Source: Nitrospirales bacterium
Lineage (GTDB): Bacteria; Nitrospirota; Nitrospiria; Nitrospirales; NS-4
DNA length: 27,605 nt
Direction of reading: 5' to 3'
Assembly (NCBI GenBank): GCA_035642795.1
Contig: DASQRT010000324.1
Location: 1 to 27,605, forward strand
Positions 14,309-19,950 of the stretch are shown here, in pieces. Within the stretch, counting starts at the first letter, position 1. Every line of letters begins with the position of its first letter. The position numbers and the translations under genes are program-made. Under the pieces are notes generated by a model. The model did not search any database. It worked only from the letters and a program-made list of their open reading frames with translations, and had not been told where the DNA came from.

Positions 14309-14485
14309 GTGGCGGAGACCGAAGACACGGCAAAGACAGAGACGTCGGCAGAGACAGCGGGCGTGAAGGAACATGACCCGACCGAAAGCTCGGGTGACAA
14401 GTGGTGGTGGGTGATCACGGTCGGCATCCTGCTGTGGATCGGATTCTGCAGCGTCGCCGTGCTCGTGTATCTATGGCGCCATTAG
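14309..14485 (+). CDS. Small tail-anchored membrane protein (58 aa), absent from the supplied ORF track
   Basis: SD GGGAGG then GTG; MAETEDTAKTETSAETAGVKEHDPTESSGDKWWWVITVGILLWIGFCSVAVLVYLWRH; CATAAT at 14274. Confidence 0.65.
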   Translation: MAETEDTAKTETSAETAGVKEHDPTESSGDKWWWVITVGILLWIGFCSVAVLVYLWRH

Positions 14486-14574
14486 GTAGTCAATCCGCTC
14501 CACCTAATGCGCAACCACGGCACCGGCTTCCGCTGCGCCAAGGATCCTAACTAACTACATTCTGCGAGAACCTG

Positions 14575-15585
14575 CTACAGCTTTCCTTCGCCTTTGAGGT
14601 ACTTGCGGAAGCGGTCCATCAGTTCCGCGCCGAGCGTCCCGCCTTCGGGCTTCTTCGTATGGGGGTCCTTGAAGTGCTGGCGGATCTCCTCTAGACGCTT
14701 CACGGCCTGGGGGTTGCCCTGAAGGCGCTTCGTCTTCTCGAGGGCCATGTCGAAGGCGTCGAAGGTCAGCTCGTCGTAGCCGAACGACCGGATGCGCTTG
14801 ACGGCTTTCATCATCGCCTCGTTGCGGAACACCGTCAGGTGCTCCGAGTCGATCTCCTTGAGGCCCAGCTTGCGTGCGCGGCGCTCGGCGGCCTTGCGGA
14901 TGCCGCTGCGGACGAAGTCGGGCGCGGTGAGCAAGCGCTTCCAAGCTTCGTCGCTCCACGCGACGGGCGAGAGCGGCGCGTCCCAGATGGCGGTCAGGGC
15001 CGCCTCGTCGATGGCGGTCAGGTCCAACTCGCGCGCTCGTTCTTCCGTGTCCCGCTTAACCATGTCCGCCACAAAGTCCATGGCGATGGCGGGCGATTGC
15101 GCGATCTTCTGCTGGAGCCGGGCCTGCGCGGCCTCGGTCCAGGGCAGGGGCGGCGCCTCCTGCAGTTTTTCATCGCCCAGCGCTTCCACTTTCTGGAAGA
15201 GCTCGACGTTGACTTCCATGTGGCCGCGCTCGCTCGCGACGTCCTCGGCGATCTGCTGAATCATGTGTCGCATGAACTCGGGCACGGTCTCCAGCCGAGC
15301 CTTGGCTTCGGCGGTCCAGGGCATCCGTCCGGCGGCCATGTCGCTCGCGGCCGCGTGCATGCCGGCCTCGCCGCCCATGCGACCCATCATCTGCTGTTTG
15401 AATTCGGTGAGAATGTCTTCGGTAATCTCGCGGTACCCAAGCTCGCGAGCCTTCTTTTCCGCCAGGCGCTTGACCATGCCACGAAGGAACACAGGGGCCC
15501 GCTCCATGCGCTTGAGCGCGCCGTCGGTCCACACGATCTCGGAGGCCCCCTTCGCCTCGTGGGTCTTGGTCTCTGGTTCCGCCAC
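14575..15585 (-). CDS. Protein of four tandem PCP_red-like (BchB/ChlB C-terminal domain) repeats
   Basis: Four W[TS]xxAxxR...P.F.R.......E..A...G...I units starting at aa 19, 90, 149 and 210. Confidence 0.85.
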   Translation of the reverse strand: MAEPETKTHEAKGASEIVWTDGALKRMERAPVFLRGMVKRLAEKKARELGYREITEDILTEFKQQMMGRMGGEAGMHAAASDMAAGRMPWTAEAKARLETVPEFMRHMIQQIAEDVASERGHMEVNVELFQKVEALGDEKLQEAPPLPWTEAAQARLQQKIAQSPAIAMDFVADMVKRDTEERARELDLTAIDEAALTAIWDAPLSPVAWSDEAWKRLLTAPDFVRSGIRKAAERRARKLGLKEIDSEHLTVFRNEAMMKAVKRIRSFGYDELTFDAFDMALEKTKRLQGNPQAVKRLEEIRQHFKDPHTKKPEGGTLGAELMDRFRKYLKGEGKL

Positions 15586-15594
15586 CTGGAGGCC

Positions 15595-15873
15595 CTATTT
15601 GTTGACGATTTCCTTGAGTTCCTTGCCGGCCTTGAAGAAGGGTACGCGCTTGGCCGGCACGGCGACCGTCGCGCCGGTTTTCGGGTTGCGCCCTTCCTTC
15701 ATGCGGCGGTTGCGCAGACGAAAGCTGCCGAAGCCGCGTATCTCGATCTTATCCCCTTTGGCCAGGGCCGTGCGGATGCCGTTGAAGATCGTGTTGACCA
15801 CGACTTCAGCCTGCCGTTTGGTCAGCGTCGGGACCTGCTCGGACAACTTCTCGATGAGCTGCACTTTCGTCAT
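15595..15873 (-). CDS. ihfB: Integration host factor beta / HU-family DNA-binding protein
   Basis: IEIRGFGSF, GRNPKTG, VPFFKAGKELKE; canonical position after rpsA; SD GGAGG. Confidence 0.93.
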   Translation of the reverse strand: MTKVQLIEKLSEQVPTLTKRQAEVVVNTIFNGIRTALAKGDKIEIRGFGSFRLRNRRMKEGRNPKTGATVAVPAKRVPFFKAGKELKEIVNK

Positions 15874-15884
15874 GGGTGTGCCTC

Positions 15885-16763
15885 CTAGAGCGCCAGCAGA
15901 TACTTTATGTTGATGTGTGATGGTGTGAGCGGGGATCCCCTCCCAAGAAACGAGTTCTCGAGGAGGTCGCGGAGCGAGAACCGCTTCCGAGGCTCGACCA
16001 CGCGCGGCTCTCCCGCAATCCCGACCAGGCGCGCCGCCAGTTTGATCGCGTCCTGGAGATCACCCAACTCGTCCACGAGCTTGGCCGTGCGGGCCTGCCG
16101 CCCCGTGAAGATCCGTCCGTCGGCCAGAGGGCGGACCTGCTCCACCTTTAGGGCTCGCCCTGTGGCCACGGCCTGGATGAACTGGTCGTGCACGTCGTCC
16201 AGGACGCTCTGGAGGAGCGCCCTGTCCTCTTCGGACATGGCCCGGAACGGGGAGGCCAGGTCCTTGTAGCGCCCGCTCTTGATGACGACGCTCTGCACGC
16301 CGACTTTCTCCAGCAGGCCCTGCACGTTGGCCAGTTCCATGATCACGCCGATGCTGCCCGTCAGCGTGCCCGGGTTGGCGACTATCTTGTCGGTCGCCGC
16401 GGCGATGTAGTACCCGCCTGACGCGGCAAGGTTGCCCATCGAGGAGACCACTTTAAGCCGCCCCTCAGTGCGCGCTTTCAGCACCTCCTTGTGGATCTCC
16501 TGGGAGGGCACGACGCCCCCGCCGGGACTGTCGATGCGCAGCACCACGGCCTTGACGCTGGGGTTGTCCCGGAACCGGCGCAATTCCTCGATGGTCTCCC
16601 GGGAATCAGTGATCACGCCTTCGATGCGGATGACCGCGATTTTCTCGCCTCCGAGCCAGCCGCTGTCCAGCGCCAGCGAGGTGAGCAGGGAAACGCCGAT
16701 GACGGCGAGGACCAGGAGGCCCAGCAGAGCCAGCGCGGTCCGGACTGTCCGCTTCTTCTCCAT
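15885..16763 (-). CDS. sppA: Signal peptide peptidase SppA, short type (S49)
   Basis: LRIDSPGG, SMGNLAASGGYY, TLTGSIGV, IKSGRYKD, DGRIFTG. Confidence 0.95.
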   Translation of the reverse strand: MEKKRTVRTALALLGLLVLAVIGVSLLTSLALDSGWLGGEKIAVIRIEGVITDSRETIEELRRFRDNPSVKAVVLRIDSPGGGVVPSQEIHKEVLKARTEGRLKVVSSMGNLAASGGYYIAAATDKIVANPGTLTGSIGVIMELANVQGLLEKVGVQSVVIKSGRYKDLASPFRAMSEEDRALLQSVLDDVHDQFIQAVATGRALKVEQVRPLADGRIFTGRQARTAKLVDELGDLQDAIKLAARLVGIAGEPRVVEPRKRFSLRDLLENSFLGRGSPLTPSHINIKYLLAL

Positions 16764-16774
16764 AGGGTAGAACG

Positions 16775-18505
16775 CTACTGACCGTTCTCCTCCTCACCCG
16801 CGTGACGCTTGTTCTTCCGGGCGGTGCGGCCCAGGGACTGGTCTACTTTGCCCTGGTTGGCGTGAAAGTCGTGCACCTGCTGGCGCTCGCTGTCGCGGTG
16901 GTGCTCCCTCAGGCTCAATGCGATCTTACGCTCCTCGCAGTCCACTTTGATGATCTTGGTTTCGAGCTCTTCGCCGATCCTGAACCGGTCCTCCAACCGG
17001 CTGGAGGCGTCCAGTCCCGTCTCGCTGATGTGGATGAGTCCTTCCACGCTGCCGTCCAGCTCCACGAAGATGCCGAAGTCGGTCAGCTTCGTCACCTTGC
17101 CGCGCGTGGGGTTGCCGACCTGGAGCTTCTCGGGGATCTCGCGCTCCCAGGGATCGGACGTGAGCTGCTTGTACCCCAACGACAGGCGCTCCTTTTCCTT
17201 ATCGATCTTGAGGACCACGGCTTCCACCTTCTGGCCCTTCTTGAAGATCTCGGAGGGATGCTTCACGTGTTTGGTCCAGGACATGTCGGAGATGTGGATC
17301 AAGCCGTCCACGCCTTCATCCAGCCCGACGAACGCGCCGAAATCCGTGAGGCTCTTGACCTTGCCCTCGATCTTGGTACCGATCGGGTACTTCGTCTCCA
17401 CAAGGTCCCAGGGATTCGGCGCCACCTGCTTCATCCCGAGGGAGATCTTGCGGGCGGCTTCGTCCACATTGAACACCTGCGCTTCCACTTGCGCGCTGAC
17501 GGAGACGATCTTGGATGGGTGCCGGACTTCGTGTGACCAGCTCATCTCGGAGACGTGGATGAGGCCCTCCACACCTGGTTCCAGCTCGATGAAGGCGCCG
17601 TAATCGGTCAAGCTGACGACCCGGCCCTTGATCCGGGTGCCGACCGGATACTTGGCGGCGACGCCCATCCAGGGATCGGCGCTCTTCTGCTTCAGGCCAA
17701 GCGAGACGCGGCCGGTATCGCGGTCATGCTTGAGGATCATCACCTCGACGCGGTCGCCGACCATGTAGATCTCCGACGGATGGCCGATGCGGCCCCACGA
17801 CATATCGGTAATGTGGAGGAGCCCGTCGATCCCACCGAGGTCCACGAAGGCGCCGTAATCCGTGATGTTCTTGATGGTGCCATTCACGAGCTGGCCTTCG
17901 GTGAGGTTCGCCAGGGTCCGCTGCCGGCGCTGATCGCGTGACTCCTCGAGCAGGAGCCGGCGGGACACGACCACGTTGCCGCGCCGCTGGTTGATCTTGA
18001 TGATCTTCATGGGGAAGGTCTTGCCGATGAGCTGTTCGGGGTCCCGCACCGGATGCAGGTCGATCTGGGAGCCTGGCAGGAAGGCTTTCACGCCGATGTC
18101 TACCATCATCCCGCCCTTGATGCGGTTGATGATCCGGCCTTCGACGATGGCCTCCTCCTTGTAAATCCGCTCCAGATCTTCCCAGACCTTCATCTTGTCC
18201 GCTTTCTCCTTGGACAGGATGAGGTTGCCTTCGCTGTCCTCGCGTTCTTCGATGTAGACCGGAATCCGGGTGCTAGGCGTGAGGGCGGCCAGCTCTTGGG
18301 GCGTGAATTCCTCGGCGGAAATGATCCCCTCGGATTTATAGCCGATGTCCACGATCACCGCGTCCTTCTTGACCGCCACGACGGTGCCTTCGATGACCGA
18401 TCCTTCCTCGAAGTTTTGGAAGGTCTGTTCGTACATCGAGGCCATCGCGGCCTTCTCCGGTGATCCCGTTTTCAACTGTTCAAGCGTTTCCATTCGCCGT
18501 ATCAC
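16775..18505 (-). CDS. rpsA: 30S ribosomal protein S1
   Basis: Six S1 repeats (e.g. ITDYGAFVDLGGIDGLLHITDMSW); start GTG 18505 or ATG 18493. Confidence 0.97.
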   Translation of the reverse strand: MIRRMETLEQLKTGSPEKAAMASMYEQTFQNFEEGSVIEGTVVAVKKDAVIVDIGYKSEGIISAEEFTPQELAALTPSTRIPVYIEEREDSEGNLILSKEKADKMKVWEDLERIYKEEAIVEGRIINRIKGGMMVDIGVKAFLPGSQIDLHPVRDPEQLIGKTFPMKIIKINQRRGNVVVSRRLLLEESRDQRRQRTLANLTEGQLVNGTIKNITDYGAFVDLGGIDGLLHITDMSWGRIGHPSEIYMVGDRVEVMILKHDRDTGRVSLGLKQKSADPWMGVAAKYPVGTRIKGRVVSLTDYGAFIELEPGVEGLIHVSEMSWSHEVRHPSKIVSVSAQVEAQVFNVDEAARKISLGMKQVAPNPWDLVETKYPIGTKIEGKVKSLTDFGAFVGLDEGVDGLIHISDMSWTKHVKHPSEIFKKGQKVEAVVLKIDKEKERLSLGYKQLTSDPWEREIPEKLQVGNPTRGKVTKLTDFGIFVELDGSVEGLIHISETGLDASSRLEDRFRIGEELETKIIKVDCEERKIALSLREHHRDSERQQVHDFHANQGKVDQSLGRTARKNKRHAGEEENGQ

Positions 18506-18547: not shown

Positions 18548-19204
18548 TTAACTGCTTGCGGACCGGTCGGTGGCATAGGGGGTCTGGACCCCGCCGAGTT
18601 CCGCGATGCGGTCCATGATCTCCTGACTGATCCGCTGATACACTTCCTTCTTCTTGCTCTCGCTGTCCATCTCCTTCACCAGCGCCGAAAAATCCATTGG
18701 CGCACCGTAGGTCACCCGAATCGGTCGCAGCCGGATCCACCTAGCCCCCGGCGGGAGCGCGTCGTACGTGCCCCCCAGGTAGACGGGCACCACCGGACAG
18801 CCCGTCGCGGCCACGATGATCCCGACGCCTGGCTTGCCGGGTTGGAGCTGTCCATCCTCCGAGCGGCCTCCTTCCGGGTAAATGACTACCGCCTCACGGG
18901 CTTTCACGCGGCGGATGGCCTCCTCAAAGCCAGTGCGGTCCACGCGCTCTCTCCGGATCGGAATCCAGCCCATGTGCCGCATCACCCAGGCTGCCGGTCC
19001 GGAGAAAAGGTCCATCCGGCCCATGAACCATGCCCGCCGGGGCATCCCGCATCCCAGGATCGGGATGTCCAGGTAGCTGGCATGGTTCGCGGCGATCAGC
19101 ACCCCGCCGGTCTTTGGCACGTTGTGCGCGCCGGAGACCCGGAGCCTGAACAACACCGTCGCCAGCAGCCGGACTGCCACCCACGCCAGCCAGTAGAGCA
19201 CCAT
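18548..19204 (-). CDS. plsC: 1-acyl-sn-glycerol-3-phosphate acyltransferase
   Basis: NHASYLD (HxxxxD), IYPEGGRS; real start ATG 19204 in a TAATG overlap with cmk. Confidence 0.93.
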   Translation of the reverse strand: MVLYWLAWVAVRLLATVLFRLRVSGAHNVPKTGGVLIAANHASYLDIPILGCGMPRRAWFMGRMDLFSGPAAWVMRHMGWIPIRRERVDRTGFEEAIRRVKAREAVVIYPEGGRSEDGQLQPGKPGVGIIVAATGCPVVPVYLGGTYDALPPGARWIRLRPIRVTYGAPMDFSALVKEMDSESKKKEVYQRISQEIMDRIAELGGVQTPYATDRSASS

Positions 19205-19950
19205 TACCGGAGGGCAGCCGTCTTGCGCTCGATCATCCGCAACATGCGCTCGACGACTTCCTCGATCGTGAGCCGGCTGGTGTCGATGATCACCGCGTCC
19301 GGAGCCGCCGCCAGCGGGGCGCTCTCCCGCGTCCGATCGCGTCCGTCGCGGGCTTCCAGTTCGCGTTGCGTCTTCGCCAAGTCCGCCGCCTGCCCCGCGC
19401 CCACGAACTCTGCATGCCGTCGGCGCGCACGCTCCGCCGACGAGGCCTCCAGAAAGAACTTCACGGGCGCCTGAGGGAAGACCCGAGTCCCCATGTCCCG
19501 GCCTTCCGCGACGATGCCTCGGATGCCTGCCTGGCGTCCGAATTTCTGCTGGACCGGCAGCAACCAGGCCCGCACATCGGGCAAGGCGGCCACCTGCGAG
19601 GCCACGCTGCCAATCTCCGGCGTCCGCAACTCGTCCCCCAGGGCTTGGCCGTCGACTTCGACGACCATCCCGCCGCCGACGGTGGACGACACCTTCAACT
19701 TCGTCGTCGCACAGAGCCCGCGTATCGCATCCGAAGACGCTGGGTCGGTGCCAGTGGTCAAGGCCTTCCACGCGACGGCGCGATAGAGGGCGCCGGAATC
19801 CAGGTACGTGTAGCCGAGTCGTGCGGCGATCAGCTTGGCAACGGTACTCTTGCCAACCCCGGACGGGCCGTCAATGGCGACGATCATCGGCGGGGTTCTG
19901 TCAGCCCCTGTAGGGGGCTTTGCGTCCCACGAGCCCGGTATTGTATTCAC
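19204..19950 (-). CDS. cmk: Cytidylate kinase
   Basis: AIDGPSGVGKST, YLDSGALYRA, AEGRDMGT, RDGRDRTRESAPL; GTGA overlap with aroA. Confidence 0.96.
   Translation of the reverse strand: MNTIPGSWDAKPPTGADRTPPMIVAIDGPSGVGKSTVAKLIAARLGYTYLDSGALYRAVAWKALTTGTDPASSDAIRGLCATTKLKVSSTVGGGMVVEVDGQALGDELRTPEIGSVASQVAALPDVRAWLLPVQQKFGRQAGIRGIVAEGRDMGTRVFPQAPVKFFLEASSAERARRRHAEFVGAGQAADLAKTQRELEARDGRDRTRESAPLAAAPDAVIIDTSRLTIEEVVERMLRMIERKTAALR

Follow-up and report, generated by a model that had tools for sequence, protein, structure and literature searches.

A protein with four PCP_red domains, here called PCP4, is encoded at the end of a conserved operon in the Nitrospirales, and our analysis showed that it is genetically linked to an AhbD-like radical SAM/SPASM enzyme by gene fusion, gene neighbourhood and co-distribution. 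On balance we lean towards the view that PCP4 is a trans-acting, non-catalytic accessory or scaffold subunit of an AhbD-like radical SAM/SPASM haem synthase system, a view in which we infer both the reaction of the enzyme and the molecular role of the PCP_red domain.

The window, i.e. the whole stretch of 27,605 nucleotides that was analyzed, belongs to a genome assembly of 1.89 Mb in 352 contigs with an estimated completeness of 93%. The features of the locus are as follows:

16775..18505, minus strand: rpsA, the gene for ribosomal protein S1, upstream of sppA
15885..16763, minus strand: gene for an sppA-like signal peptide peptidase, upstream of ihfB
15595..15873, minus strand: ihfB/HU-family gene, 92 aa, directly upstream of PCP4, with 79–84% identity in 19 of 19 Nitrospirales loci
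15586..15594, minus strand: spacer of 9 nt that separates ihfB from PCP4
14575..15585, minus strand: PCP4 gene, which closes the array; GTG start, 336 aa, with a conserved C-terminal tail behind the four PCP_red domains
15397..15531, minus strand: PCP_red repeat 1, aa 19-63, net basic, 53.5 bits
15319..15396, minus strand: flexible linker rich in Met, Gly and Ala, aa 64-89, modelled with low pLDDT; outside the order little of it is conserved save for an 'MMG' motif
15190..15318, minus strand: PCP_red repeat 2, aa 90-132, net acidic, 50.4 bits
14992..15141, minus strand: PCP_red repeat 3, aa 149-198, a diverged copy in which an insertion separates helix 1 from helix 2, 23.3 bits and on its own below the cut-off
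14833..14958, minus strand: PCP_red repeat 4, aa 210-251, net basic, best conserved of the repeats and with invariant columns, 46.4 bits
14578..14832, minus strand: conserved helical C-terminal tail, aa 252-336 (85 aa), with R254, N255, M258 and M259 invariant

The original prediction of four tandem PCP_red domains was borne out by Pfam, in which PF08369 matched four stretches of the protein with a total of 145.1 bits (E 6e-43), and in a six-frame scan three of the four repeats individually passed the gathering threshold of this family (32.5 bits). The repeat starts that had been read from the sequence (aa 19, 90, 149 with an insertion, and 210) coincide with the Trp positions of the repeats as mapped on the DNA; all of W90, W149 and W210 are invariant in an alignment of 17 orthologues, with W19 almost so. 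The additional half repeat fared less well: it does lie within the strongly conserved tail, but its similarity to repeat 1 is weak (15 of 39 positions identical, low alignment score), and it was dropped as a true repeat for want of statistical support.

The most conserved region of PCP4 is formed by repeat 4 together with the tail, with R226, G228, K231, R254, N255, M258 and M259 invariant, and fusion proteins of the radical SAM and USP types end in this module as well. Of the repeats, 1 and 4 are basic, with a strongly basic helix 2, and 2 and 3 are acidic. The protein as a whole has a pI of 6.7, 18 Met and no Cys. Since it has neither a Cys nor a conserved His, there is no obvious haem ligand except for two invariant Met. 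The linker at 15319-15396 (minus strand, aa 64-89), which is rich in Met, Gly and His, resembles the 'Mets' motifs that bind Cu(I); as it is conserved only within the order, this reading was abandoned.

The AlphaFold model of the whole protein (mean pLDDT 75) consists of four small strand-helix-helix-strand-helix units which are joined by flexible linkers and followed by a helical tail. In the fold comparisons PCP4 superimposes on the PCP_red structure 2KRU with a TM score of 0.75-0.76, an rmsd of 1.2 A over 52 columns and a Z-score of 9.2, and on residues 479-528 of ChlB (2ynm_D) with an rmsd of 1.2 A, a Z-score of 6.8 and 34% identity. PCP4 thus has the PCP_red fold, and a different known fold, which would have spoken against the original prediction, was not found among the structure matches. 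2YNM, an ADP-AlF3 complex with the L-protein in which the PCP_red domain is resolved, was the sole DPOR structure that matched the model; 2xdq_B, the best match by sequence, was absent among the fold matches. In a Foldseek search the whole-protein model matched 2KRU and 2L09 only. The tail found no fold match, either in the whole-protein model or in a model of repeat 4 plus tail, the matches covering model residues ~1-60. No catalytic domain had been expected in PCP4, and the data agree with this: no such domain was found, Cys is lacking and the model is a helical beads-on-a-string arrangement, which is in keeping with a non-catalytic adaptor.

The PCP4 gene belongs to the rpsA-ihfB operon, as had been proposed, the order rpsA-sppA-ihfB-PCP4 being found in all of the 19 Nitrospirales loci that were compared. 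The short distance to ihfB was likewise confirmed, as the TAG stop of ihfB (15595-15597) and the GTG start of PCP4 (15583-15585) leave exactly 9 nt between them. Within the window the operon closes a long same-strand array comprising ruvA, ruvB, pheA and the genes for an aminotransferase and DAHP synthase, followed by tyrA, aroA and an acyltransferase gene. The latter, just upstream of rpsA (18548-19771, minus strand), encodes a protein of 407 aa of which only residues 209-332 match the Acyltransferase family (PlsC-type) and whose N-terminal 200 residues gave no Pfam match at E < 1e-4. On the other side of PCP4, and convergent with its stop, lies an ORF of 58 aa (14309-14485, plus strand) that is missing from the 60-aa ORF list. 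A Shine-Dalgarno-like site, GGGAGG, precedes its GTG by 7 nt; the product is acidic at its N-terminus and has one clear transmembrane helix, and no homologue of it was detectable downstream of PCP4 in the 19 Nitrospirales loci.

A consensus scan found no promoter from rpsA to PCP4; terminator-like hits were no more frequent than expected from shuffled sequence, and none was seen on the PCP4 strand just past the PCP4 stop. A soil metatranscriptome contig of 6 kb from a relative with ~92% identity spans 14396-16852, from PCP4 through ihfB and sppA into rpsA, and short contigs from the RNA libraries of two other studies fall within PCP4. As such contigs cannot prove co-transcription and carry-over of DNA is possible, they are taken as a weak hint only, and the expression at housekeeping level that had been supposed is a conjecture.

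PCP4 was found in 40 of 40 sampled Nitrospirales genomes (28 of 28 in one family and 12 of 12 in the other) with 68-76% identity, and a search of 201 Nitrospirota genomes found it also in the three remaining sampled genomes of the class. Close homologues bear the labels Nitrospirae or Nitrospirales. Its constant place behind rpsA and ihfB might point to a nucleic-acid, nucleoid or ribosome-associated protein. Beside the operon order and the 9-nt spacer, the strongly basic helix 2 in the first and fourth repeats, a weak likeness in fold to PDCD5-type dsDNA-binding proteins and AAA+ lids (Z 4-7) and a dsDNA_bind Pfam hit in one relative would agree with such a role. However, the AAA+ lid domains of RuvB, RuvBL, MCM and DnaA reach Z 5-7 over ~53 residues, values regarded as common for small helical units, the overall pI is 6.7, and none of the fusions found involves a nucleic-acid enzyme. 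Above all, the linkage to ihfB is lost outside the order, where PCP4 is not beside rpsA or ihfB (G124, G006 and the fused forms); in G006 the neighbouring genes, for a cNMP-binding protein and glutamate dehydrogenase, are uninformative. As the linkage to ihfB is specific to one order, we consider this role the least likely, and indeed very improbable.

PCP_red is known from the BchB/ChlB subunit of DPOR, and an absence of chlorophyll genes nearby had been noted for this locus. This observation extends to the genome, in which neither an Oxidored_nitro gene (PF00148) nor a true NifH or BchL was found at 93% completeness; PF00142 hit only P-loop stretches of ~40 residues with 20-26 bits. The possibility that the genome encodes a DPOR with PCP4 as its accessory was thereby answered as well, the searches with PF00148 and PF00142 having found no BchN or BchL partner. 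The NCBIfam models of BchB/ChlB (TIGR01278 / NF002789) match PCP4 only at profile positions ~455-535, with 60-94 bits against cut-offs of 490-912, and the Oxidored_nitro domains are absent, so that PCP4 is not a BchB. Most likely, PCP4 is not a photosynthesis protein. Our literature search found no functional study of PCP_red/PF08369 or of the four-domain architecture, in line with the earlier statement that a function outside DPOR is not established; nor did the literature searched state a function for PCP_red within DPOR, and no functional study was found on Nitrospira and protochlorophyllide reductase.

The main evidence for a link to the radical SAM enzyme comes from the fused forms of PCP4. 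In Nitrospirota of other classes, all of PCP4 makes up the C-terminal half of an AhbD/NirJ2-like radical SAM/SPASM enzyme. An exhaustive search of representative sequences with PCP4 retrieved few full-length clusters and, in addition, longer proteins. In two of these, P0130 (713 aa) and P0138 (696 aa), three to four PCP_red hits come after the Radical_SAM and SPASM domains, residues 14-331 of PCP4 aligning with residues 363-678 of P0138. In loci of three other lineages (G017, G041 and G064) a radical SAM part with 51-54% identity to the enzyme of our genome continues straight into a full PCP4, and the fused gene is preceded by a USP-PCP_red gene; the radical SAM-PCP4 fusion is found in a fourth locus, G058, too. 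In G124 PCP4 is separate from the radical SAM gene but encoded on the same strand, which represents an intermediate state. Only an MNT/HepT toxin-antitoxin pair lies between them: this nucleotidyltransferase/HepT-like pair (locus L034, 8909-9708, minus strand) is placed exactly between the AhbD-like gene and PCP4. Taken together, an orthologue of PCP4 is fused to a PCP_red-type AhbD-like enzyme in P0130, P0138 and these four loci and neighbours it in G124.

The co-distribution agrees with this. The clade of PCP_red-type enzymes has an identity of at least 48% and reading frames of 430-735 aa. In the 201 Nitrospirota genomes sampled, PCP4 of full length, whether free or fused, is present only in lineages that have an enzyme of this clade and is absent from those with a short canonical AhbD only (35-43% identity, ~350-410 aa) or with none, although these counts represent related genomes, not independent ones, and the linkage is trivial in the fused lineages. 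In Nitrospira G189 PCP4 lies ~58 kb from the enzyme. A complex prediction for enzyme and PCP4 gave a score of 0.01, which speaks neither for nor against binding.

In our genome the enzyme is encoded on contig C259 by the second of three genes in a row, an apparent operon which is also present in Nitrospira G189. The first gene encodes a protein of 681 aa with the architecture USP-USP-PCP_red-rubredoxin-PCP_red-PCP_red, the second the radical SAM/SPASM enzyme of 453 aa with a single C-terminal PCP_red domain and the third a CopD-like membrane protein of 171 aa. The translation of the enzyme contains the CX3CX2C motif, and Pfam detects Radical_SAM and SPASM. Its best family matches are NirJ2 (323.8 bits) and AhbD (TIGR04545, 317.6 bits); as both scores are below the equivalog cut-offs of 500 bits, we call the enzyme AhbD-like only. 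Some sources name the PCP_red-type enzyme an AdoMet-dependent heme synthase.

The inventory of haem genes suggests which step the enzyme might catalyze. hemE, hemH and hemY are adjacent on contig C349, no siroheme decarboxylase domain was hit in the 93%-complete genome, and only one sub-threshold gene is HemN-like. Two proteins of the Chlor_dismutase family (contigs C79 and C268) score 126 and 74 bits, far below the ChdC/HemQ equivalog cut-off of 235, so that there is no confidently identified aerobic coproheme decarboxylase in the genome. Because hemE-hemH-hemY are present and neither a siroheme decarboxylase hit nor a confident ChdC was obtained, the PCP_red-type AhbD-like enzyme is probably an oxygen-independent coproheme decarboxylase that catalyzes the last haem step here, as judged from gene content and family scores.

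In the accessory-subunit reading, PCP4 would be a detached form of the C-terminal extension of the AhbD-like enzyme. The enzyme would convert coproheme, supplied by the coproporphyrin-dependent route of hemE-hemH-hemY, to haem b without oxygen, and PCP4 would act on it in trans by means of its PCP_red domains and the repeat-4-plus-tail module. PCP4 might keep hold of the tetrapyrrole or pass it on; alternatively, it might dock the enzyme to redox partners that bear PCP_red domains themselves. The catalytic proteins that were seen to carry PCP_red, namely BchB, BchZ (weakly) and the AhbD-like enzyme, all act on tetrapyrroles, and this common type of substrate favours the handling of substrate or product. 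Several observations stand against the accessory role, however: the Nitrospirales PCP4 is fixed in a ribosomal and nucleoid operon and not near the enzyme, PCP4 has no obvious haem ligand apart from the two invariant Met, PCP_red occurs in fusions with USP and rubredoxin-like domains as well, which are no tetrapyrrole enzymes, and the substrate of the AhbD-like enzyme, with its scores below the 500-bit cut-offs, is assigned by sequence only. We consider it possible, if rather doubtful, that PCP_red is a general, hitherto unrecognized handling module of Fe-S tetrapyrrole enzymes of the DPOR, COR and AhbD type, and that PCP4 is a four-valent haem or coproheme chaperone or scaffold of a multi-protein, oxygen-independent terminal haem synthase on which all Nitrospirales depend.

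PCP4 is not the only protein of its kind in these bacteria. When the PCP_red proteins were listed, about five with 11-12 domain hits were counted in each Nitrospirales genome examined, and among the nearest relatives fusions to USP are the commonest architecture (13 of 34 in one set, more in another), some of the USP-PCP_red proteins having rubredoxin-like inserts. These many USP and rubredoxin fusions favour an assembly mediated by PCP_red, and PCP4 might accordingly be a redox, stress or regulatory adaptor in a network of USP, PCP_red and rubredoxin proteins whose PCP_red domains bind each other and for which the haem synthase is one client. The charges of the basic repeats 1 and 4 and the acidic repeats 2 and 3 would allow such a pairing of domains, whereas we know of no self-association of PCP_red. 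In addition, the USP-PCP_red gene always adjoins the AhbD-like gene in the loci examined; a network of this kind therefore overlaps with the accessory role more than it competes with it, and as an explanation separate from that role it seems unlikely to us.

Two further gene groups contain PCP_red proteins. On contig C23 a same-strand run of four genes encodes an O-methyltransferase, a DUF420 membrane protein, a protein of 160 aa whose N-terminus is Cys-rich and which has two PCP_red domains, and a multi-pass membrane protein of 338 aa that gave no family match. The order of these four genes is kept in G189, where a protein of 241 aa with two PCP_red domains heads the same-strand array that ends in PCP4; its counterpart would lie just past the contig end in our assembly. 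In G108 (locus L035, 2640-9304, plus strand) the order is thioredoxin-like protein, DUF420 protein, HU, Mrp-type ATPase (MrpORP/ApbC-like), two-PCP_red protein, haem-oxygenase-like diiron protein (CADD/BesC-type), PCP4 and NikR, which may represent an older arrangement of the PCP_red gene set.

The ATPase in this cluster bears on the partner that had been guessed for PCP4, namely a P-loop ATPase or an Fe-S/tetrapyrrole protein. The second half of this guess was supported by the AhbD-like fusions, while the first is only circumstantial, relying on Mrp in one lineage and on 2YNM. If it were correct, PCP_red would serve generally for the docking of NifH/Mrp-type (SIMIBI) ATPase dimers or Fe-S carrier proteins, and PCP4 would be a multivalent Mrp/ApbC adaptor that is not specific for haem. 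The match to the L-protein-bound 2ynm_D alone among the DPOR structures and the Mrp neighbour, which in G108 lies directly upstream of the two-PCP_red gene and two genes ahead of PCP4, do favour protein docking; the C-terminal domain of ChlB is reportedly in contact with ChlL in 2YNM, and our genome contains one gene of the Mrp/ApbC type. However, the Mrp neighbourhood is confined to one lineage and is not seen in Nitrospira G189, and BchL and NifH are lacking from the genome. Moreover, proteins of the NifDK type use NifH without a PCP_red domain, and the radical SAM and USP fusion partners are, to our knowledge, not users of such ATPases. An adaptor for these ATPases is therefore improbable in our judgement, and the role as an accessory of the AhbD-like enzyme is retained.

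The haem-pathway inventory and the finding that the genome lacks a confident ChdC are new in the present analysis, as are the co-distribution of PCP4 and the enzyme clade, the intermediate found in G124 and the repeat-4-plus-tail module. The Nitrospirales include the main nitrite oxidizers and the comammox bacteria, and haem proteins are of great importance for their energy metabolism. Should an AhbD-like radical SAM enzyme together with a set of PCP_red proteins carry out their final haem step, a central pathway would here take a new form, for the biochemistry of which the naturally fused enzymes are ready-made constructs.

When compared to known systems, the likeness to AhbD (TIGR04545) is that of the partner enzyme, which shares the CX3CX2C motif and the SPASM domain and finds its best family matches in AhbD and NirJ2. 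AhbD occurs in organisms with the coproporphyrin-dependent pathway. In contrast to the partner enzyme, canonical AhbD in the sampled genomes has ~350-410 aa and no PCP_red extension, and neither we nor the reviews consulted know of an accessory subunit described for it. Asr4154 from Nostoc PCC 7120 (2L09; Z 7.1, 62 residues aligned) is, like PCP4, a stand-alone PCP_red protein with no catalytic domain, but it has a single domain in 62 aa, lacks the tail module and comes from a phototroph; our literature search found no functional study of Asr4154, 2L09 or 2KRU, and Asr4154 is named there only in papers on structure-prediction methods. A small non-catalytic domain has been described that occurs as part of a radical SAM cofactor enzyme in some cases and as separate proteins in several copies in others (PMC13474568). 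The likeness of this system to PCP4 is one of analogy, a non-catalytic domain occurring fused to or separate beside a radical SAM enzyme; the two domains are related neither in sequence nor in fold, and cargo binding by PCP_red would be a suggestion by analogy.

A close relation also exists to the PCP_red domain of BchB/ChlB in DPOR (PF08369; NMR structure 2KRU; ChlB 479-528 in 2YNM), which is of the same Pfam family and fold as each repeat of PCP4 and forms an appendage of an Fe-S enzyme with a tetrapyrrole substrate. PCP4 differs from it in its four copies of the domain, in its conserved tail, in the lack of nitrogenase-like catalytic domains and in its occurrence in a genome without DPOR. 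The finding provides a testable handle on the PCP_red domain of the chlorophyll-making DPOR, and if PCP_red is indeed a handling module, the same reading would also explain the C-terminal domain of BchB/ChlB.
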